From Candidatus Uhrbacteria bacterium (GTDB taxonomy: Bacteria; Patescibacteriota; Patescibacteriia; UBA9934; GWF2-40-263), in assembly GCA_013204385.1 (NCBI GenBank), contig JABMNY010000003.1, positions 14,270 through 78,269 on the forward strand: 64,000 bases of DNA, written 5' to 3'. The position numbers and the translations under genes were made by a program. The notes under the pieces are model-generated. The model saw nothing but the letters and a program-made list of their open reading frames with translations, did no database searches and was not told the origin of the DNA. Shown here in pieces: positions 10,899 to 64,000 of this stretch. How positions within the stretch are numbered: position 1 is the stretch's first letter; each line of letters opens with the position of its first letter.

Positions 10899-11306
10899 TT
10901 ACTTGAGTGAAACAGCTCCACCAGCATCTTCGATCTGCTTCTTCATCTCTTCTGCTTGTTCTTTTGAAACACCTTCTTTTACCATTGTTGGCGCAGCGTC
11001 AACAATATCTTTTGCCTCTTTGAGTCCAAGACCTGTGATCGCTCGAACGGCCTTAATCACATTGATCTTGTTGTCTCCACAGCTTGTAAGCTCAACATCA
11101 AATGATGTTTGTTCTTCTGCAGCAGGTCCAGCAGCAGGTCCAGCAGCCATCATCATTGCTGGAGCAGACGCGCTCACACCAAACTTGTCTTCGAGAACTT
11201 TTACGAGATCTGCAAGGTCCAATACAGACATCTTTTCAACAGACTCTACAAGCGCTTTAAACTTTTCTGGCACCACAACTTCTTCCTTGGTTGTTTCTTC
11301 TGACAT
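10899..11306 (-). CDS. rplL: 50S ribosomal protein L7/L12
   Basis: 135 aa [11 protein letters not shown]...[19 protein letters not shown]...[17 protein letters not shown]. Confidence 0.95.
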
Positions 11307-11336
11307 AATTGATTGAATAAGTGAATAATATATTGA

Positions 11337-11465
11337 GAGACTTCTGAAAAAGTGATGGATTTTCGTTAAACGGGCTGCTGAGATCGTGAACCCTACTCAA
11401 ATGTAGGGAGAACGGAATCAGCGGGTGCCCGTGAGACGAAAAGACGCGCTTTTACAGAGGTCTCT
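11337..11465 (-). repeat. 129-nt element with ~10-15 nt terminal inverted repeats (copy A), filling rplJ-rplL intergenic space and abutting rplJ stop codon
   Basis: ~90% identical (as reverse complement) to 59843-59969; ends AGAGACYTCTG...CAGARGTCTC; internal hairpin CCCTAC-N6-GTAGGG. Confidence 0.6.
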
Positions 11466-11987
11466 TTACGCCTTTGCTTCTTTGATCGCACTAAGAACGT
11501 AAACGAATTTACGGAGATTTCCTGCAAGAACATTAACGAATCCAGAGATTGGTGCGTTGAGTGTTCCAACGAGCTGTCCAAGTAATTGTTCTCTGCTTGG
11601 TAAGGTTGCAAGTTGTTGAATGGCCTCTTTTGAGACAAACTGTCCCTCGAGAATTCCTCCAACAATGGAGATTGTGTCACGACCTTTTGAAAACTCAGCC
11701 ATGAGTTTTGCGGCTGCGACTTCATCATCGAACCCGAATGTGGTGAGAATACTGCCTTCCAAATCATCTCTTGTGATTGGGAATCCATTTTTCTCAAGCG
11801 CACGTACGAGAAGAGATTTTTTTGCGATGAGAAGTTCTACTCCAACGGAGCGACCTTTTTCACGCAGAGTGTTTGCATCTTCCATGGTATATCCAGCGAC
11901 GCTGGTAAACACCACAGATTTCATGCTTGTGAGCTTCTCCGCAAGCCCATCAACAATCTCTGACTTCTGTACACGTGTTTTTGGCAT
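11466..11987 (-). CDS. rplJ: 50S ribosomal protein L10
   Basis: 173 aa MPKTRVQKSEIVDGLAEKL... Confidence 0.95.
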   Translation of the reverse strand: MPKTRVQKSEIVDGLAEKLTSMKSVVFTSVAGYTMEDANTLREKGRSVGVELLIAKKSLLVRALEKNGFPITRDDLEGSILTTFGFDDEVAAAKLMAEFSKGRDTISIVGGILEGQFVSKEAIQQLATLPSREQLLGQLVGTLNAPISGFVNVLAGNLRKFVYVLSAIKEAKA

Positions 11988-12002
11988 AATTTGTTCGACC
12001 TT

Positions 12003-12140
12003 TAAAAATAAAAAACTACGGATTCACGCCGTAGAACAAGGTCGAAAAGACATCTTTTCGCTGTTCACCTCGACGAGACTTGTGGCACGTGCCTGCTCGT
12101 GGTCTACGGTAAATCTTCAGTTCGATAAGAGCATACAAGA
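12003..12140 (-). promoter_or_regulatory. rplJ promoter (TTGACA-N17-TATGCT) and structured leader with hairpin+U-tract attenuator immediately upstream of rplJ start
   Basis: On minus strand: ttgacacacatcccgtcttcttgtatgct; leader contains ggcacgtgcc palindrome and cuacggcgugaauccguag followed by UUUUUUAUUUUU just before the ATG. Confidence 0.4.
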
Positions 12141-12164
12141 AGACGGGATGTGTGTCAATAAAAA

Positions 12165-12195
12165 AGCCGCTCTGAAACAGAGACGGCCGTGCCCA
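12165..12195 (-). terminator. Intrinsic terminator downstream of PP2C gene
   Basis: minus-strand gccgtctctgtttcagagcggc + TTTTTT. Confidence 0.65.
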
Positions 12196-12202
12196 TGCGG
12201 GA

Positions 12203-13096
12203 TCAAGAGGTTTGGCGAAAGAAAACGATCGTCACGTCATCTGTCGCCTGAGGGAGCAGGCTTCGAGCGTAGTCGTGAACTTCGCTCAGAGAAACCGTCT
12301 GCGTACGTCCCTGAAAGTGCCTGAGCGTACTCTCCACGATCCTGTTGCCTCCGTCCGAGCAAAGAGCGAACAGTTCACCCCTGGCAAACTCCGCCAGCTG
12401 GATCGTGGAACAGCTTGGTGTATGAATGACTGCTGGGTGGTAATCCCAATTTCCAAACGTCCGAGTAGGTTCAAGTCCACCAACCCACCGTCCGTTTACA
12501 GATCGATACAGTCGATCAACCGATCCTGGTGGCAGAGGTGGCAAACCATTTCCACTTGGGTTCGGAAACACGTTGAATTGACCAGATCGCAGAAATGATC
12601 GCAGGCGAGCAATCTCATCGGGATGATCGACATTGTGATCCTGCGTGAGACAGGCGAACCCTCGATTCCACCTAGGCAAACTCACATAGAGTCGGCAGTC
12701 ACCGGTTTGCGCCAGGCGGATTTGCGTCTCTTCCACCACGATCGCCGTGGCAACGGCTCCGACGGTAAGAAATCGATTCTTGTTTATCTCCGCAATTCGC
12801 GGGAGATACACCGAGCCCAGAACCTGCGCGACTTCATCGAACTGATCAGGAAAACAACTCGGATCCGGATACTGCTGAAACAGCACATTCAAACCCACAG
12901 CCACATCACCAGCAAATGTCGCGATGACGTATGACTTGTTTTTCCAGTGTCCTATGACATCTGTTTCGTTCCCATGTCCATCAACGACCACCGCAAAGAA
13001 CGGTCGACCGCCTCCAGCTGGAGTCACAAGAACAGCATCCTCACTTGGCCCACCGATGTACAGTGGGGCCGAGATAACTGTATATTCAACATGCAT
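12203..13096 (-). CDS. PP2C-family (PPM) serine/threonine protein phosphatase
   Basis: 297 aa; AVVVDGHGN, DHNVDHPDEIARL, GRWVGGLEPTRTFGNWDYH, LCSDG, ATDDVTIVFF motifs; GC higher than neighbours. Confidence 0.85.
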   Translation of the reverse strand: MHVEYTVISAPLYIGGPSEDAVLVTPAGGGRPFFAVVVDGHGNETDVIGHWKNKSYVIATFAGDVAVGLNVLFQQYPDPSCFPDQFDEVAQVLGSVYLPRIAEINKNRFLTVGAVATAIVVEETQIRLAQTGDCRLYVSLPRWNRGFACLTQDHNVDHPDEIARLRSFLRSGQFNVFPNPSGNGLPPLPPGSVDRLYRSVNGRWVGGLEPTRTFGNWDYHPAVIHTPSCSTIQLAEFARGELFALCSDGGNRIVESTLRHFQGRTQTVSLSEVHDYARSLLPQATDDVTIVFFRQTS

Positions 13097-13138
13097 GGCA
13101 CCCTCCTGATAGGTTGTCGCCCAGAATTGGGACAGCTA

Positions 13139-13168
13139 AACCTATCCCAATTCCTCCACTTTGTCAAC
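13139..13168 (-). promoter_or_regulatory. Candidate sigma70-type promoter (TTGACA-N18-TAGGTT) plus AGGAGG RBS for PP2C gene
   Basis: minus strand ttgacaaagtggaggaattgggataggtt; AGGAGG 5 nt before ATG. Confidence 0.45.
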
Positions 13169-13202
13169 CAAAAAGAGAGCGTACAGCTCTCTTTTTTTCA
13201 TC

Positions 13203-13913
13203 CTAATTTCCAATCACGGTTCCGATAAACCGCTTTCCTTTCAAGAGTCCCTCAAGATTCTTTAAATTCTTTCCGTTCAAAATCGCAACCTTCATGCCAC
13301 TATGATGTGCGAGTCGGGACGCAACAGGATCAAATGGAACATTCATTCCAGGGTCCCACTCGTTTCCAACCATCTTGCGAAAATCTTTCCAAGTAATATC
13401 GCAAATGACTTCCGCGTCTGAATACTTGTTTGGATCTTTATCGTAGACGTAATCGATATTTGAAAGATTGATGACCACCTTACTTCCCAATCGCTTTGCA
13501 AGGCGCGTTGCCACGTAATCCGTTGACCAGCCTGGTTTCCACCCTGCCGCAACAAGCACAGGCTGTTTTGGATGCTTTGGGGCGCGCGTTGGATCCTTGA
13601 TCATGACAGGATGGGCAATGTCACGAAACGCTGTTCTCATGAGATGTCCGTTCAATCGTGTTGCGTGGATGCCGAGCCAATCTAAATCCTCTCGAGTCAG
13701 CTCCCCTACTTTTCGTGCTGCCTCTTGATATTGCCGTGCGGTCCCCCCACCTCCGACAACAATCACAAATTTCCATCCTTTCTTGACGGATGCACTAATG
13801 AGTTTTTTAAAATCTTTTAAGAATTGAGAATCGATTCCTCCGTTTGGAACGACGAGTGAGCCTCCAACAGAAATGACAAGTGTACTTGGTTTGAGTGAAT
13901 TGGAATGAGTCAT
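13203..13913 (-). CDS. pyrH: Uridylate (UMP) kinase, amino-acid-kinase family
   Basis: 236 aa; VISVGGSLV...VIVVGGGGTARQY... typical PyrH glycine-rich motifs. Confidence 0.8.
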   Translation of the reverse strand: MTHSNSLKPSTLVISVGGSLVVPNGGIDSQFLKDFKKLISASVKKGWKFVIVVGGGGTARQYQEAARKVGELTREDLDWLGIHATRLNGHLMRTAFRDIAHPVMIKDPTRAPKHPKQPVLVAAGWKPGWSTDYVATRLAKRLGSKVVINLSNIDYVYDKDPNKYSDAEVICDITWKDFRKMVGNEWDPGMNVPFDPVASRLAHHSGMKVAILNGKNLKNLEGLLKGKRFIGTVIGN

Positions 13914-27042: not shown

Positions 27043-27224
27043 GGTGGTGGTCAAGGTATTGCAAGACTTGGCCTGGCTCCACCATTCGTCAGTAAATTCT
27101 CTCTCTTCTAGCAACACTCAACAGGGTGGAAATAAATTTAGGTGTGCCGGTGGTAGTCAAGATATTGTAAGACTTGGCCCGGTTCCGCCGAAGCACCTCA
27201 ATTTATTTCCACCCTGTTGAGTTA
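27043..27224. repeat. Two related ~41-nt hairpins (conserved loops TATTGYAAGA) with the second embedded in a 22-bp long-range inverted repeat
   Basis: ggtggtggtcaaggtattgcaagacttggcctggctccacc vs ggtggtagtcaagatattgtaagacttggcccggttccgcc; actcaacagggtggaaataaatt / aatttatttccaccctgttgagt. Confidence 0.5.
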
Positions 27225-27244
27225 TCCCCACCCCACCCCTTGCG

Positions 27245-29182: not shown

Positions 29183-30388
29183 ATGCATCGCATCATCCTT
29201 CACATTGACATGAACTCGTACTTTGCCTCTGTAGAGCAACAGGCGAACCCTTTTTTGCGTGGAAAACCGATTGGGATTACAGGAAAAGACCAAGAGCGCT
29301 CCGTCGTCGCAACCGCCTCTATTGAAGCTAAGAAACTTGGGGTGAAGACCGCTATGTCTACCTGGGAAGCAAAGAAGATTTGCCCTTCACTTATTCTCTA
29401 TGCCGGCGACCCAGAAAAGTACTCAGACATCATGCATCGCTTCAACGCAATTTACCAGGAGTTCACTCCACATGTGGAACCATTCAGTGTAGATGAAAGT
29501 TTTTTAGATATAACAGAAGAGGCGGAAGATTTTTTTGGAGCGACGTATATGGCTCAAATGATCCGTACACGTCTTAAAGAAGAACTCGGGAATCACATCA
29601 CCGCCTCCATCGGTATTGCCCCAAACAAACTCATGGCAAAGCTTGCGTGTGAGACTGTGAAACCAAGTGGACTCACTGTTGTTCAACCAGAAGAACTTAT
29701 CGACTTGTTGAACCGTTGTAAACTTGATGACCTCTGCGGAATCGGTCCCCGTATTCTTAAACGTTTACACGCACTTGATATTAAAACATTCGCAGAACTA
29801 CGTGCATGCCCACTTGAGGATCTTCAACGTGAATTTAAGAGCTACGGTCTTTGGCTTCACGAAGCCGCTTACGGACGAGACTCTTCACAAGGAGTGAATG
29901 CGAATTCTTCAGACGCAAAATCTTACGGACATTCCTATACACTGCCAGAGAATACTCAAGATCAAACAGTACTCAAACGTTATCTCTTTGGACTCGCCGA
30001 CAAAGTTGGTTGGCGCATGCGTCGAGATGGAGTTGTTGCGCGTCGCATTACCGCCCATGTGCGGTTTGGAGATTTTACAAGTCATAGTGAACAACGAACG
30101 GTGAATACTCCAACAGCAGACGGCATGGATCTTTTTAAAATTTCCTGGAACATCGTAAAACCCCTACTCACAAGCGATGTACGTCTTGTCGGTCTCTCCG
30201 CCTCTATGCTTACAAAAAATCCTAGCCAACCGTCCCTATTCAAAAAAGAACGGAACATGCAGTCCGTCCTATGTGCGCTCGATTCTCTCCAACACCGCTA
30301 TGGCACAGGTGTCTGGAAACGAGGTGCAACACTCCCCCTCAACCTCAAACAACGCTCAAGCGGCTTCCATTTTGATCATGAAGTGTAG
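29183..30388 (+). CDS. dinB: DNA polymerase IV (Y-family)
   Basis: Start at MHRIILHIDMNSYFASVEQ; SVDESFLD catalytic motif. Confidence 0.9.
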   Translation: MHRIILHIDMNSYFASVEQQANPFLRGKPIGITGKDQERSVVATASIEAKKLGVKTAMSTWEAKKICPSLILYAGDPEKYSDIMHRFNAIYQEFTPHVEPFSVDESFLDITEEAEDFFGATYMAQMIRTRLKEELGNHITASIGIAPNKLMAKLACETVKPSGLTVVQPEELIDLLNRCKLDDLCGIGPRILKRLHALDIKTFAELRACPLEDLQREFKSYGLWLHEAAYGRDSSQGVNANSSDAKSYGHSYTLPENTQDQTVLKRYLFGLADKVGWRMRRDGVVARRITAHVRFGDFTSHSEQRTVNTPTADGMDLFKISWNIVKPLLTSDVRLVGLSASMLTKNPSQPSLFKKERNMQSVLCALDSLQHRYGTGVWKRGATLPLNLKQRSSGFHFDHEV

Positions 30389-30542
30389 AGAGTGAACTTA
30401 AGAAGTTCCTCTTCTTAAGTTCCGAACGAAGCGAAGTGATCTGTTCTACAGATCATGAAGTGTAGTGAGCGAGTTCATAAAGTTCCTCTTTATGAATTCC
30501 GAACGGAACGCCATGACTTGTTCTACAGATCATGAACTCTAG
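30374..30542. repeat. 2.2 tandem copies of a 77-bp unit beginning with the last 5 codons+stop of dinB (gatcatgaagtgtag), each unit carrying a 12-bp-stem hairpin with conserved TTCCTC loop
   Basis: Units at 30374, 30451, partial at 30528; stems gaacttaagaag/cttcttaagttc vs gagttcataaag/ctttatgaattc differ but stay complementary. Confidence 0.7.
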
Positions 30543-35255: not shown

Positions 35256-35336
35256 TGACTGCACACTCCCAGCGACCAACGGCAACCTGCCCACCTTAGC
35301 TTTTCGAGCAACGGTGGGTTTTTTCTTTTTCAAAAA
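35256..35336 (+). terminator. Tandem hairpins + U-tract terminator module (ACCTGCCCACC..AGCT.TTCGAGC.ACGGTGGGTTTT) plus duplicated dcd-leader-like segment ending in ATG
   Basis: ~70 nt similar to 61650-61746. Confidence 0.55.
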
Positions 35337-58054: not shown

Positions 58055-58279
58055 ATGTCCACCACTACCAAAAAGAAAGAGAATCCTATTCAGTGGCTTT
58101 GGCGCTACTTGAATGAGTCTCGCGAAGAACTTCGTAAAGTCACCTGGCCAACTCAAAAAGAAACAACCAAATACTCGTTGATTGTGATTGTGTTGTGTCT
58201 CGCACTCGCCTTATTTTTTGGAGGTCTTGATTACCTCTTAAACTTAGGTCTCGAGTGGTTAATTAGTGTCACCAATTAA
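58055..58279 (+). CDS. secE: Preprotein translocase subunit SecE
   Basis: 74 aa single TM; WPTQKETTKYSLIVIV. Confidence 0.8.
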   Translation: MSTTTKKKENPIQWLWRYLNESREELRKVTWPTQKETTKYSLIVIVLCLALALFFGGLDYLLNLGLEWLISVTN

Positions 58280-58283
58280 TTCT

Positions 58284-58829
58284 ATGGCAAAACAGACAGC
58301 CAATTTTGGACGACGATGGTTTGCGATCCACACCTACTCAGGATACGAGGAAAACGTGATGGAAAACTTGAACCAGCGTATTGAAACAATGGACATGGAA
58401 GAAAAGATCTTCAGTGTTCTTGTTCCGAAAGAAAAGAAAATTAAAATCAAGAACGGAAAACGAAAAGTCATCGAAGAAAAGATTTTTCCTGGATATGTTC
58501 TTGTGGAGATGCTCGTAACCGATGATTCTTGGTACGTTGTTCGAAACACCCCAAACGTCACAGGTTTTATTGGAACAGGAACCACTCCAACACCAATCGC
58601 AGAGGAAGAAATGGAAGCGCTTAAAAAACGCATGGGAGTGGATGAGCCTGAATTTAAGATGGATGTCGAAAAAGGATCTTCTATTCAAATCACAGACGGA
58701 CCATTTAAAGGTCAAGAAGGAAAAGTATCTGAAGTTGACGAAGAACGTGGAAAAGTCAAAGTGCTTGTTAACCTCTTTGGTCGAGAAACACCTGTGGAAC
58801 TCGACTTCTTGCAAGTTAAGAAGATTTAA
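58284..58829 (+). CDS. nusG: Transcription antitermination factor NusG
   Basis: WFAIHTYSGYEENV NGN domain; KOW C-terminus. Confidence 0.9.
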   Translation: MAKQTANFGRRWFAIHTYSGYEENVMENLNQRIETMDMEEKIFSVLVPKEKKIKIKNGKRKVIEEKIFPGYVLVEMLVTDDSWYVVRNTPNVTGFIGTGTTPTPIAEEEMEALKKRMGVDEPEFKMDVEKGSSIQITDGPFKGQEGKVSEVDEERGKVKVLVNLFGRETPVELDFLQVKKI

Positions 58830-58834
58830 CCTCT

Positions 58835-59338
58835 ATGCCTCCTCGTCGCATTCTTGAAATTGGACCAGGACCCAGTCCTCTCCATCATCGAGGAATAGAA
58901 AACTCCCTGCAACTAAAGGACAATGAAGAGTATCACGGCATTGACTCACACGAAGGAATGTCTGAAAGAACCGTCTGGAAGCAAGCAAAGGAAGAATATG
59001 GAGATCGTGTGTTTCTGTATCAAGGGGATCGCACTGACCTCCATCAAATTGCAAACAACAGCATGGACGAACTTGTCGCTCTAGGAACCTATGGTCGAAA
59101 CGGAAAAGCCGTTCGCGAGTTTGATCGTGTTCTTAAAGAAGGTGGAAAACTTCTGTTGGGAACCAACACATCAAATGAACAGGCACTTCGTGAATCTTGG
59201 GGAGCCCGTCTTGAGCGACGTGGGTATCAAGAACTTCCCTCCAAAACAAAGCGATATACCCATAAAGGAAATACTTCTGCTGAATCTCCTTTTATCGTCC
59301 TGGTTTGGCAAAAAGGCTATTCTGAGGAATCGCATTGA
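58835..59338 (+). CDS. Small class I SAM-dependent methyltransferase inserted between nusG and rplK
   Basis: motif I ILEIGPGPSP. Confidence 0.55.
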   Translation: MPPRRILEIGPGPSPLHHRGIENSLQLKDNEEYHGIDSHEGMSERTVWKQAKEEYGDRVFLYQGDRTDLHQIANNSMDELVALGTYGRNGKAVREFDRVLKEGGKLLLGTNTSNEQALRESWGARLERRGYQELPSKTKRYTHKGNTSAESPFIVLVWQKGYSEESH

Positions 59339-59419
59339 CAAAAAACCCATTTCCATCAATAATCACCCCGTTAATCCTTAGCTGTGGTTGCCTGTAAAAT
59401 AGGAATCCACTTAAAAAGT

Positions 59420-59842
59420 ATGGCAAAAAAACTTGTTACTCAAATCAAATTGCAGGTTCCAGGTGGAGCAGCAACTCCAGCCCCTCCAATTGGACCAGCG
59501 CTTGGACAGCATGGTCTCCCTATTCAAGAGTTCGTTGTTCGTTTTAACAACGACACACAAGATCGACGTGGAGAAATTGTTCCAGTGGTCATCTCTGTGT
59601 ACGACGATCGAACATTCGACTTCATTTTAAAGACTGCCCCGGCGTCTGACATGATTTTGAAAGCAGCGGGCATCAAAAAAGGATCAGGAAATCCTTTGAC
59701 GACAAAAGTTGGATCTATCACCCAGGCGCAACTCAAAGAAATCGCAGAGAAGAAAATGCCTGACCTCAATACAAATGACACAGAAGCTGCCATGAAAATC
59801 ATTGCAGGGACCTGTCGTCAGATGGGAGTCGAAATCAAGTAG
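59420..59842 (+). CDS. rplK: 50S ribosomal protein L11
   Basis: [29 protein letters not shown]. Confidence 0.95.
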
Positions 59843-59969
59843 AGACCTCTACAAAAGCGCGTCTTTTCGTCTCACGGGCACCCGCTGACCCCGTTCTCCC
59901 TACGTTTTAGTAGGGTTCTCGGTTTCAGCAGCCCGTTCAACGAAAATCCATCACTTTTTCAGAGGTCTC
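59843..59969 (+). repeat. 129-nt terminal-inverted-repeat element (copy B) between rplK stop and rplA
   Basis: agagacctctacaaaag...ctttttcagaggtctc; ~90% identical to reverse complement of 11337-11465. Confidence 0.6.
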
Positions 59970-60036
59970 GTAAGTCTAATCATTCATTACTGTGGGAGGT
60001 GTGAGATACTCTCAGACCGACCGAACCACTACCTGT

Positions 60037-60720
60037 ATGCCAAGTAAACGTTTTCAAGCAGCCAAGACCCTTGTTGATAAAAACAAGGTCTACACAATCA
60101 CCGAAGCGATTGCCCTCACAAAGAAAGCGGCGACCGCCAAGTATGACGAAGCAATCGAACTTCACCTTCGTATCGGAATCGATCCAACAAAGTCAGACCA
60201 GCAAATTCGTGGAACCATTTCCCTTCCACATGGAACAGGAAAAACCAAGCGTGTTGCTGCGTTCGTAGAGGGAGACAAGGAAGCAGACGCAAAAGCTGCT
60301 GGGGCAGACATTGTTGGAGGAGAAGAACTCATCGCAACAATTGCTGCAAAGGGAACCATCGACTTTGATGTCGCAGTTGCCACACCAGCCATGATGCCAA
60401 AACTTGCAAAGCTTGCTCGACTCTTAGGACCTCGTGGTCTGATGCCAAACCCAAAAACAGACACTGTTTCTCCAAACGTCACCAAGATGATTGAGGAGCA
60501 AAAGGCGGGTAAGGAAAGTTTTAAGAACGACAACACTGCAAACATCCACCAGATCTTTGGACGGAAGTCTTTCACAGAAGCACAACTCGAAGAAAACCTT
60601 CGAGCGCTCCTAGAAACACTGAAACGCATGAAGCCACAGTCTTCAAAAGGAATTTATTTGAAGAGTGCAACCATTGCGTCAACCATTGGTCCTGGAATCA
60701 AAGTAGATATAAACTCATAA
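60037..60720 (+). CDS. rplA: 50S ribosomal protein L1
   Basis: Start at MPSKRFQAAK. Confidence 0.95.
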   Translation: MPSKRFQAAKTLVDKNKVYTITEAIALTKKAATAKYDEAIELHLRIGIDPTKSDQQIRGTISLPHGTGKTKRVAAFVEGDKEADAKAAGADIVGGEELIATIAAKGTIDFDVAVATPAMMPKLAKLARLLGPRGLMPNPKTDTVSPNVTKMIEEQKAGKESFKNDNTANIHQIFGRKSFTEAQLEENLRALLETLKRMKPQSSKGIYLKSATIASTIGPGIKVDINS

Positions 60721-61649: not shown

Positions 61650-61725
61650 CTGCCCCGTTCCAAACACGGGGACCTGCCCACCAAAGCTCTTCGAGCGACG
61701 GTGGGTTTTATTATTTTCAAATCTG
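61650..61725 (+). terminator. Tandem hairpins + U-tract terminator module (copy of 35256-35336)
   Basis: ccccgttccaaacacgggg; cccaccaaagctcttcgagcgacggtggg + TTTTATTATTTT. Confidence 0.55.
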
Positions 61726-61743: not shown

Positions 61744-62400
61744 ATGTCCATCCTTACACGATCTGAAATCACAAAACACATTACAGACCAACAGCTGGTA
61801 TTCACCCCCGCATTGGATCAGTTTCAACTCCAGCCACATGCAGTCGATCTTCGACTTGGCTACAAATTTCTCATACCACGCAACTGGACCGTGGATGAAA
61901 AAGGACGTCGTGCCATCAACATGTCGATCGATGACATCGATGCGCATCGCGATCAGTTCGATGAAGTCCAGCTCCAACCAGGACAATACTTCGATCTCCT
62001 CCCAAACGAATTCGTGATTGGGACAAGTCTCGAACGCATCGAAATAAACGCGATGAACCTGATGGCGATTCTCTTCCCTCGCACGAGCACAAACCGTCGT
62101 GGGATCGACCTCTCCCTTTCAGGCATCATCGACACCGGCTACAAGGGACACCTGATCTTCCCAATGAAGAACGAAGCGGGCGACCAAGTCATTCGCATCT
62201 ATCCAGGCGAGCGCGTCTGCCAAGTCATTTTCCAAGAACTCAACCACCCCCTCACCCCAGAAGAAGCCAACCTCCACGGCCTCTCTGCTGCCAAGTACAG
62301 CGGATCAGGTTCGCAAGGCTTCAAACTCGACAAAGACGAAGAGCGACAGATGCTCATCTCAGGAAAACTCGACGATTTGAAAAAGGAATACGGACTTTAA
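61744..62400 (+). CDS. dcd: dCTP deaminase / dUTPase-fold protein
   Basis: 218 aa; MSILTRSEI...VDLRLG dCTP deaminase N-terminus. Confidence 0.8.
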   Translation: MSILTRSEITKHITDQQLVFTPALDQFQLQPHAVDLRLGYKFLIPRNWTVDEKGRRAINMSIDDIDAHRDQFDEVQLQPGQYFDLLPNEFVIGTSLERIEINAMNLMAILFPRTSTNRRGIDLSLSGIIDTGYKGHLIFPMKNEAGDQVIRIYPGERVCQVIFQELNHPLTPEEANLHGLSAAKYSGSGSQGFKLDKDEERQMLISGKLDDLKKEYGL

Positions 62401-62403
62401 ATA

Positions 62404-62431
62404 AAATCAGCCCAAAACGGGCTGATTTTTG
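62404..62431 (+). terminator. Intrinsic terminator after dcd
   Basis: aaatcagcccaaaacgggctgattttt. Confidence 0.65.
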
Positions 62432-62616
62432 TTTGGTTTGTCCCAAAATAGATTGACAAAAGACTGTTTTTATAGTACCTTTGCCTGTTCGCTTTTTTAT
62501 TCTGATCTTGTGAAACCAGCGCTCATTACGTTGATTTCGCCAGAGCAGAAAATGGCGGCGCAGGGAGGGTGGCGATAGCTTTCCCATGTGTATCCTTATC
62601 GCATTCGAGGTTTGTC

Positions 62617-64000
62617 ATGAAATTCAACACTTACGTTGGTTCCAACAACTGGAAGAAGGTTGAGATTCAGGTTCCAGACGGCAAATGGGCTCTGAGAATC
62701 AAGCTCTCGACTTCCCTGACTTCACACCCACAGGACAAGCGCTTCGGGATCAACCAAGAGGGACACTCGGACGCACGCCTGCGTCCACATACCCAGGTGG
62801 TCACTCGATTCGTACGAGTCCTAGGAGTGGCTGAAGATGCGGTCACGATCCACCAGATCAACGACCATCACGATCGAGAGTCCCACCACTGGATCAACGA
62901 TCTCGATCTCCTGCTCGTGTGTGATCAACCCTTCGCGGTTCTCACCATCAGTGACGACCAGGAATTCCCCAGCCAGAGTGGCTACCGACGAGCCAGCATC
63001 CGGGTCGCTCGGCAGGTCCACAAGGGTGAACTGTCGCAGACGTTCAGACCAGTCGTGCTCAGAAGCACCGAGAGCGACCTGCAGATCAATCATGCGCCGG
63101 TGCAATACGTTCAACTGAAGGATGTTGCACAAGCCATCAACATCGATCCCCTCGAATGTCTGCGCACCTTCGCTGTTGTCTCGCCCTCGAGCTACTACGA
63201 AGCGAATGCGTCGATCTCGCACCGGGGTGCACGGTATCGCATTTACGAGACTGTCCCACAGGGCGGTGACTGTACTGGTGCAAGTCAGTGGGGAGAGACA
63301 GCGATCAGCTGGGAAACCTTCCAGGCGAACATGAACACGAAGGGTTGGCATTCGGACCAGATCTTCATTCCCATGGCCTGGGCGCGCGACATTCTCATCC
63401 TCGCGCACTTCGGGTTCATCCCAGGAGTGAACGAGAAGCCGGAGCGTTCCTTCCTGATCAAGGCCGAACAGCCCGAACCCTACACTATCCTCGGACTCCT
63501 GCCTGTACTCCCGATCGACGAGATCCGAGAACTGCGGGGCTCCATCCAGAAGGCACGAACACCTGGAGAGTGGAACGCTCTGGTAAAAGCGACCCTGGGT
63601 CCCCAGAAACAGAGCGCGACGCACCCCAAAGACCGCCCCTTCACAGACAGAGACCGATCTGCCTTCGAGTGTTGGGTCGAGACCGTGACTGGTCATAGCA
63701 ACTGGGCTCAGGCGCAGGACCTCAACGACACCGGCAGTTTCGTCTACCACAACGACTTCCGTGTCCTGCGACTCTTCAACGATCGTCTCTCGATCGCAAC
63801 CAGCTTCTGGTCACGAGGTGGCGCAGATAAAGGACAGTACTGGGCCGGTTTCATCGCTGTACACCCAGAGATCGCTGTGGATCCCAGGCGTGAACCCGCG
63901 CTCTACAGGCTGATGATCTGGCCTGACCAGATCCTTCGCCAGACGCCAATCGGTGTGGAAGGAGGATTCTTCCCAGAGATCGAAGGCATCGAGCCCGAGA
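62617..64000 (+). CDS. Large (>460 aa) orphan protein, ~58% GC, open to window end
   Basis: Uninterrupted frame from ATG 62617 (GAGG RBS) to position 64000; MKFNTYVGSNNWKKVEIQVPDGKW...; absent from ORF track because it has no stop within window. Confidence 0.55.
   Translation, partial: MKFNTYVGSNNWKKVEIQVPDGKWALRIKLSTSLTSHPQDKRFGINQEGHSDARLRPHTQVVTRFVRVLGVAEDAVTIHQINDHHDRESHHWINDLDLLLVCDQPFAVLTISDDQEFPSQSGYRRASIRVARQVHKGELSQTFRPVVLRSTESDLQINHAPVQYVQLKDVAQAINIDPLECLRTFAVVSPSSYYEANASISHRGARYRIYETVPQGGDCTGASQWGETAISWETFQANMNTKGWHSDQIFIPMAWARDILILAHFGFIPGVNEKPERSFLIKAEQPEPYTILGLLPVLPIDEIRELRGSIQKARTPGEWNALVKATLGPQKQSATHPKDRPFTDRDRSAFECWVETVTGHSNWAQAQDLNDTGSFVYHNDFRVLRLFNDRLSIATSFWSRGGADKGQYWAGFIAVHPEIAVDPRREPALYRLMIWPDQILRQTPIGVEGGFFPEIEGIEPE

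Follow-up and report, generated by a model that had tools for sequence, protein, structure and literature searches.

Two long hairpins in ribosomal-protein operons of a Candidatus Uhrbacteria genome are probably copies of a short palindromic transposable element

ERIC (IRU) elements are imperfect palindromes of ~127 bp in Enterobacteriaceae and Vibrio that occupy transcribed intergenic regions and often abut stop or start codons; they are co-transcribed with the flanking genes, and orientation-dependent effects on the mRNA have been reported. Correia elements (CREE/NEMIS) of Neisseria, which occur in many intergenic copies and may sit flush with genes, are miniature inverted-repeat transposable elements (MITEs) of 100 to 160 bp with inverted termini. 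They show a TA duplication, conserved terminal repeats of ~26 bp, and promoter and IHF sites, and they are co-transcribed in operon mRNAs, where the terminal hairpin is a substrate of RNase III. REP elements are located after stop codons, and both REPs and IS200/IS605 elements insert without target duplication. Among insertion sequences (IS), subgroups of the IS5 family (IS1031, IS427, IS5) generate duplications of 2 to 4 bp and have GA or GAG ends, and the IS3 family generates duplications of 3 to 4 bp. Here we analyze a stretch of 64,000 nucleotides from Candidatus Uhrbacteria bacterium (contig JABMNY010000003.1, positions 14,270 to 78,269), referred to as the window, in which two similar palindromic elements lie between the ribosomal-protein genes rplJ and rplL (copy A) and between rplK and rplA (copy B). 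With a probability of about 0.88, both copies are non-autonomous transposable elements (MITEs) of ~128 bp that belong to a family present in Candidatus Uhrbacteria and related bacteria of the Candidate Phyla Radiation (CPR, Patescibacteria). The classification is based on dispersed copies, target-site duplications of 3 to 4 bp and an orthologous site that lacks the element.

The two copies are 92% identical over the alignment, with no indel within the element, and the similarity ends exactly at the inverted termini, beyond which the flanks are unrelated (Table 1). Each copy stands in sense orientation relative to its own operon. A sequence-only reading of the window had described an element with inverted-repeat ends in the rplJ-rplL spacer and a ~90% identical second copy after rplK in the same orientation relative to transcription, and both statements hold. 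The extent given for copy A (11337-11465, 129 nt) included one flanking A, and the sequence string printed with it was 130 nt long, which corresponds to 11336-11465; the true element has 128 nt. Both copies are predicted to fold into one long interrupted hairpin, with -50.2 kcal/mol (z = -7.2) for copy A and -58.2 kcal/mol (z = -10.3) for copy B, and in neither case did any of 200 shuffled sequences fold as well. When the whole window was scanned with filters off, a covariance model (R1), built from five copies after blastn searches, recovered copies A and B as the only members of the family.

Copies of the family range from 123 to 136 bp and are non-coding. No open reading frame (ORF) was found within copy A, and the only ORF of at least 50 amino acids that reaches it is an out-of-frame read-through across rplJ (11393-11803). 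The inverted termini GAGACCTCTG and CAGAGGTCTC represent the consensus and are present in most copies, while a minority has different yet self-complementary termini. Since neither copy contains a promoter-like or terminator-like site in sense orientation, and such sites bracket each of the two-gene units, both copies lie inside a transcription unit and should be co-transcribed with the adjacent genes.

The RplJ relatives among species-representative genomes assign the source to Candidatus Uhrbacteria (CPR/Patescibacteria). The orthologous site was compared in related genomes, which are designated by locus numbers. In the closest relative, L002 (Candidatus Uhrbacteria CG10), RplJ and RplL are 91 and 97% identical to those of the window, respectively, and the rplJ-rplL spacer comprises 30 nt (TAA CCTCATTATTCAATCAATCAATGTATT ATG) without the element; the empty site reads GCG TAA CCTCATTATTC... 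The window sequence 3' of copy A (TCAATATATTATTCACTTATTCAATCAATT ATG) has about the same length as this spacer, and its ATG-proximal half can be aligned with it. Copy A therefore represents an insertion next to the stop codon that left the region upstream of rplL intact. The element was absent from the rplJ-rplL spacer of all 14 closest rplJ loci (L002 to L014 and L039), and none of 38 rplJ loci gave an R1 match after rplJ. Other sites are filled in the relatives. In L003 and L004, a copy detected by blastn and then by R1 has the conserved 3' end of the L10 leader (AAAGGTCGAACA) on one side and the rplJ ATG on the other; this site is empty in the window, in L002 and in L006. A further copy in L010 is positioned directly 3' of the stop codon of a gene for a PF04020-type membrane protein, ahead of pyrH, and a diverged copy is found upstream of rplJ in L029. 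This comparison of empty alleles covers the rplJ-rplL and the L003/L004 sites.

Two further observations concern these spacers. At L003:2360-2490 and L004:2362-2490, the MITE displaces the leader and any ribosome-binding sequence ~134 nt from the rplJ start codon, and only folding of the hairpin would bring them back to the rplJ start. Other palindromic inserts or repeats occur in the rplJ-rplL spacer of relatives (L012:3017-3148, L011:3017-3132 and L039:1177-1306); the insert in L012 is a palindrome based on AGTGACT, and this locus also carries a different repeat upstream of rplJ. In this group, palindromic DNA seems to have inserted into the rplJ-rplL spacer repeatedly.

A metagenome scan with a pattern of the conserved core yielded at least 120 loci, and R1 confirmed at least about 40 further copies, with 81 to 132 bits, among the core-pattern matches listed. 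Some contigs carry more than one copy (three within 8 kb in L153, two in L157), and several contigs with copies were obtained from each of the metagenomes Ga0209824, Ga0209417 and Ga0265296. Only one of the 20 Pfam-annotated genes flanking metagenome copies encodes a ribosomal protein (S2). The neighbors include genes for a PBP2 transpeptidase, a Mur ligase, FtsW/RodA (twice), RecJ, lumazine synthase, IMPDH, NrdR, VIT1, a type IV secretion system coupling protein and a prepilin peptidase, and some copies are located at tRNA 3' ends. The rplJ loci, which were retrieved because they contain rplJ, harbor about three independent insertions in ~56-190 kb. This is comparable to the density in the window (2 per 64 kb, or 1 per 32 kb), so that there is no enrichment near rplJ to explain. 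The sequence-only reading had considered MITE-like mobile DNA with preferred insertion at the ends of ribosomal-protein genes; the mobile DNA agrees with the dispersed copies, the duplications described below and the empty site in L002, while the preference is not borne out by the neighbors or by the density near rplJ. A mild preference for highly transcribed regions could still exist, and the presence of both window copies in rplKA and rplJL is notable, albeit post hoc.

Derivatives of the element were also found. A 171-nt element (L088:114-284) has the same termini (TAGAGACCTCTG...CAGAGGTCTCT) and an unrelated interior, and two mini-hairpins of 36 nt (L047:6634-6669 and L041:4614-4649) consist of the terminal parts only, being internally deleted. 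With their common ends, they represent siblings and deletion products of the element, as is typical of MITE families. In Logan short-read assemblies of the same organism, contigs end 22 to 42 nt inside the element after both rplJ and rplK (L001:3523-3564, L161:3424-3463 and L163:1712-1733), which is expected of a repeat. An exact 21-mer of the core (CGTCTCACGGGCACCCGCTGA) had no match in 185,579 species-representative genomes, a result that says little about the distribution of the family, since relatives differ at a few core positions. The core pattern had no match in viral contigs, and blastn gave no match to plasmid and phage records; nothing in these comparisons points to a vector of phage or plasmid origin.

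The sequence-only reading had also proposed looking for target-site duplications. With the boundaries anchored on the outermost pair GAGAC...GTCTC, the flanks of 41 independent copies were compared. An exact direct repeat of 4 nt was present in 11 copies (TCCA, ATCA, GAAA, GATA, AATA in two copies, ATGA, AAAT, TAAA, AAAA and TGTT), whereas 5000 runs with permuted right flanks gave 0.63 on average and never more than 5. Five more copies showed an exact 3-nt repeat, and in a further five the flanks matched at three of four positions. A TA-dinucleotide target in the style of Correia or IS630-Tc1 elements was rejected, because the anchored boundaries give duplications of 3 to 4 bp with variable sequence (TCCA, ATCA, GAAA, TGTT, ATGA and others). 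The sequence-only reading had taken many genome-wide copies with target-site duplications as the mark of an ordinary MITE; this is essentially what was found, with the copies coming from related contigs rather than from the source genome.

The duplications also explain the position of the element. In copy B (GTA-element-GTA), the rplK stop codon TAG consists of the TA of the left repeat and the first G of the element, and the right repeat, which continues as GTAAG, retains the inferred original TAA. In copy A (TAAA-element-TCAA), the rplJ stop codon lies inside the left repeat. The element is flush with the stop codon because the duplication, alone or together with the first G, carries the stop. 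In 13 of the 41 copies, the duplication overlaps the stop codon of a co-oriented gene upstream, and in two copies the duplication TCCA keeps a tRNA-like 3' CCA end.

Table 1. Positions in the window of the two MITE copies, their putative target-site duplications and the adjacent genes
Feature	Position	Strand	Remarks
MITE copy A	11337..11464	-	128 bp; R1 148.1 bits; ends GAGACCTCTG...CAGAAGTCTC; boundaries anchored on outermost pair
Copy A, left (5') target-site duplication TAAA	11465..11468	-	includes rplJ stop TAA (11466-11468); 3/4 match to right flank
Copy A, right (3') target-site duplication, now TCAA	11333..11336	-	one mismatch to TAAA
MITE copy B	59842..59969	+	128 bp; R1 148.5 bits; ends GAGACCTCTA...CAGAGGTCTC; first G is third base of rplK stop TAG
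Copy B, left target-site duplication GTA	59839..59841	+	read directly from ATCAAGTA/GAGACC; TA is first two bases of rplK stop
Copy B, right target-site duplication GTA	59970..59972	+	read directly from GGTCTC/GTAAGTC; GTAAG keeps inferred pre-insertion stop TAA
rplJ (L10), context only	11466..11987	-	upstream of copy A; NCBIfam NF000955, E = 4.9e-43
rplL (L7/L12), context only	10899..11306	-	downstream of copy A, start at 11306; NCBIfam, 1.1e-43; original ~30-nt upstream spacer intact
rplK (L11), context only	59420..59842	+	upstream of copy B, stop TAG at 59840-59842; NCBIfam TIGR01632, E = 1.2e-54
rplA (L1), context only	60037..60720	+	downstream of copy B, ATG at 60037; NCBIfam TIGR01169, E = 3.9e-90

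We propose the following course of events. A DDE-type transposase supplied in trans would make a staggered cut of 3 to 4 bp and insert the element. In the gene-dense genomes of CPR bacteria, the surviving insertions would be those without damage to the flanking genes. The A/T-rich target would often include a stop codon, which the left duplication would re-create, as TAAA may have done at rplJ. At rplK, TA and the first G of the element would re-create the stop as TAG and leave the element flush with the upstream gene, and a tRNA CCA end would likewise be restored by the duplication. The downstream gene would retain its own original upstream spacer. The element would then be co-transcribed in the rplJ-rplL and rplK-rplA mRNAs as a very stable hairpin that is probably tolerated rather than required.

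Among described systems, the family comes closest in behavior to ERIC and Correia elements, from which it differs in target duplication, sequence and host. It resembles ERIC elements in that it has nearly the same size, is an imperfect palindrome over its full length that forms one long hairpin, and is non-coding and located in transcribed intergenic regions, often against a stop or start codon and with predicted co-transcription with its neighbors. However, ERICs are reported at TA dinucleotides, whereas the duplications here are variable and 3 to 4 bp long, no sequence relationship was detected, and the family is hosted by a CPR bacterium whose genome is tiny. With Correia elements it has in common a size between 100 and 160 bp, inverted termini, many intergenic copies, a predicted presence in operon mRNAs and a position flush with genes. 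In contrast to them, the family has a variable 3-4-bp duplication, pairing over the full length and no promoter-like site. MITEs derived from DDE-type IS elements share with it duplications of 3 to 4 bp, GAG termini, A/T-rich targets, a non-autonomous nature and internally deleted mini-copies. Unlike for those, no parent IS was found here and the compensated termini are unusual, so that an assignment to an IS family is a lead only. No description of MITEs in CPR/Patescibacteria was found in the literature searched, and the family is apparently undescribed.

Several observations weigh against the MITE classification. A clean duplication is still visible in only ~40% of the copies. Neither the window nor ~1 Mb of fetched loci yielded an autonomous element or transposase with matching termini 0.7 to 4 kb apart; the search for paired termini there returned only mini-derivatives and chance matches, and we infer the mobilizing enzyme. 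The copy number of the source genome was extrapolated to ~20-40 from the 2 copies of the 64-kb window. Furthermore, the central core is the most conserved part, which is unusual for transposase-bound terminal repeats; this conservation is partly due to ascertainment and should not be over-read, as retrieval by the core pattern biases the metagenome copies toward a conserved core. The outer stems of L056, L087, L097, L099 and L140 are wholly different in sequence yet perfectly self-complementary, and complementary indels occur among them (in L056, CC is replaced by AAGT on one arm and GG by ACTT on the other). For such stems, a concerted process from arm to arm, or mobility that depends on structure, is an easier explanation than independent point mutations. 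Finally, where both neighbors are co-directional, 26 copies are in sense and 5 in antisense orientation (binomial p = 1.9e-4), and this bias points to some strand-specific selection or mechanism.

The orientation bias is part of the case for a MITE with an added RNA-level role (exaptation), in which the element would serve as an RNase III-type processing site, a stabilizer of mRNA 3' ends or an insulator uncoupling translation, with selection keeping the sense orientation and the pairing. Such a role appears rather unlikely to us, although several results are in its favor. Both window copies lie inside transcription units and are in sense orientation, even though they are on opposite strands in a region of uniformly negative GC skew. 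In the 42-sequence R1 alignment on which the structure statistics were determined, 91.6% of the cells are paired, compared to 75.1% in shuffled alignments and 31-45% with slid partners. Both sides have changed at 34 of 46 pairs, with pairing kept in every helix, and the asymmetric internal loops are conserved; none of 500 shuffles matched the observed value on any of five structure measures. In addition, the effects of ERIC and Correia elements on the stability and processing of mRNA depend on their orientation. On the other hand, the pairing is almost purely Watson-Crick, with 20 G-U as against ~27 A-C cells outside the conserved mismatch columns. In the absence of a G-U excess over A-C, nothing marks the sense RNA as the selected strand. 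The closest relative also manages without the element at the same site, and the contexts of the copies are without a functional theme. Local GC skew was uninformative for separating replication from transcription bias, being confounded with gene direction, so that a replication-linked insertion bias is possible.

Doubtful, too, is the related idea that the hairpin itself is under selection in a mobile structured module, either as RNA or as a folded single strand. As RNA, it may be a sense-oriented processing, stability or insulation element that is tolerated or exploited inside essential operons. As a folded single strand, it may allow transposition or replication to copy one arm from the other, which would give outer stems that differ yet remain complementary. 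The 26:5 sense bias and the concerted compensatory change of both arms leave room for a role at the RNA level or for a strand-specific mechanism, either of which would leave the basic classification as a MITE unchanged.

It is very unlikely that the element is REP/BIME-like or a palindrome of the IS200/IS605 type (PATE), mobilized in single-stranded form by a RAYT or a Y1 (HUH) transposase that reads the hairpin structure instead of the terminal sequence. Like REP/BIME elements and IS200/IS605-derived palindromes, the family consists of intergenic hairpins that often follow stop codons, with structure conserved over sequence and a strand bias. The outer stems, in which the structure is conserved and the sequence is not, and the concerted changes of the arms fit recognition of a folded single strand, and the orientation bias could reflect a strand-specific mechanism. 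However, such elements leave no target duplication, whereas 16 of the 41 copies here have exact duplications of 3 to 4 bp with variable sequence, which are statistically clear. Moreover, no conserved target motif of 4 to 5 nt fixed on one side was seen among the flanks of the copies, and 128 bp with symmetry over the full length are unlike REP units of ~35 nt. No gene for TnpA(Y1) or RAYT was seen, although no search was directed at either.

It is highly improbable that the element is a conserved cis-regulatory or structured RNA specific to the L11-L1 and L10-L12 operons, such as an autoregulatory site for a ribosomal protein or a shared processing signal. At first sight, this reading is favored by the sense orientation of both window copies and their location within the classical rplKAJL cluster, one in each half, by two more independent insertions just upstream of rplJ (L003/L004 and L029), and by a strong hairpin with covariation. 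Nevertheless, the closest relative lacks the element in the orthologous spacer, other relatives carry it elsewhere, the downstream gene differs from genome to genome (rplL, rplA, rplJ, pyrH), and 19 of the 20 annotated neighbors of metagenome copies do not encode ribosomal proteins. Target-site duplications and a copy density at rplJ loci comparable to that of the window argue in the same direction. In Rfam, the whole window had no matches at gathering thresholds, and a relaxed scan (E <= 10) of the two loci returned nothing above noise for the element (E >= 5), so that the structured RNA shared by the two operons, which the sequence-only reading had offered as its other explanation, finds no counterpart among these families. 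We conclude that the element is ordinary mobile DNA and not a control element of ribosomal-protein genes.

The relaxed scan located a real L10 leader separately. RF00557 (L10_leader) was found upstream of rplJ at 12001-12127 on the minus strand with 32.6 bits, which is below the gathering score of 44, in agreement with the sequence-only view that the element and the rplJ leader are distinct. The leader resembles the MITE in being a structured RNA segment of the same operon, but it is a separate element, and its sequence is conserved across all close relatives whereas that of the MITE is not. The Rfam model seems to under-score CPR versions of the leader. The 5' region of rplJ further contains a promoter-like TTGACA-17-TATGCT at 12158-12130 on the minus strand and an attenuator-like hairpin followed by a T-run at 12034-12016, and conservation of the leader sequence (CTGAAGATTTACCGTAGACC...AAAGGTCGAAC) extends over the Uhrbacteria relatives L002 to L010.

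Local duplication or gene conversion between the two operons without transposition would account for two copies that are 92% identical at analogous positions, but it has next to no probability, because the similarity stops at the inverted termini with unrelated flanks, dozens of homologous copies lie in unrelated contexts of other genomes, and each copy has its own flanking duplication.

The classification as a MITE removes a tempting false lead, since a strongly folded element that occurs twice, in the L11-L1 and the L10-L12 operons, resembles a shared riboregulator. It also documents a MITE family in CPR/Patescibacteria in spite of their very gene-dense genomes of ~1 Mb, and it suggests how a transposon may survive there, namely by landing on stop codons or tRNA CCA ends, where the duplication or its own first base restores the end of the gene. 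For genome analysis, the element has two consequences, in that it breaks short-read contigs inside core marker operons and inflates intergenic spacers, which might then be mistaken for regulatory regions. Small questions on how palindromic MITEs move and are tolerated arise from the orientation bias and from the concerted evolution of the arms.

The secE-nusG-rplKAJL cluster is split in the window. One part, secE-nusG-(methyltransferase-like gene)-rplK-rplA, is on the plus strand at ~58-60.7 kb (58055-60720), and the other, pyrH-(PP2C-like gene)-rplJ-rplL, is on the minus strand at ~10.9-13.9 kb (11466-13913 noted). Since rplA or rplK was found within 2.5 kb upstream of rplJ in none of the Uhrbacteria-like relatives (loci L002 to L022), the split is common to the group. 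Between copy B and rplA, a hairpin (GGGAGGUGUGAGAUACUCUCAGACC; 59993-60023, plus strand) is located 3' of the MITE and 14 nt upstream of the rplA ATG. As a candidate L1 site it was rejected, as the 75-nt fold was no better than shuffled sequences (z = -0.5) and had no Rfam match, and no claim is made for it.

Elsewhere in the window, R1 matched 27112-27226 with 20 bits on both strands, but this segment was rejected as a family member, being an unrelated long hairpin matched by its structure only. It is a near-perfect intergenic hairpin of ~115 nt, part of whose loop (GGCCAAGTCTTRCAATAYCTTGAC) is repeated at ~27045-27085, and it may represent a second palindromic repeat family. Two tandem units of 77 nt that are 77% identical, each with an inverted repeat (CTTAAGAAGTTCCTCTTCTTAAG and TTCATAAAGTTCCTCTTTATGAA), are present at 30374-30527. 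A 56-nt repeat occurs at 35279-35334 and 61666-61721, 26 kb apart and 84% identical, and is terminator-like, with a GC-rich stem (CCCACC...GGTGGG) followed by a T-run. Finally, the GC content of positions 62001-64000 is 0.547, compared to 0.41-0.51 elsewhere in the window, and long ORFs overlap there on both strands (62821-63750, minus; 63288-63698, plus); this segment may be a compositionally foreign gene at the edge of the window.

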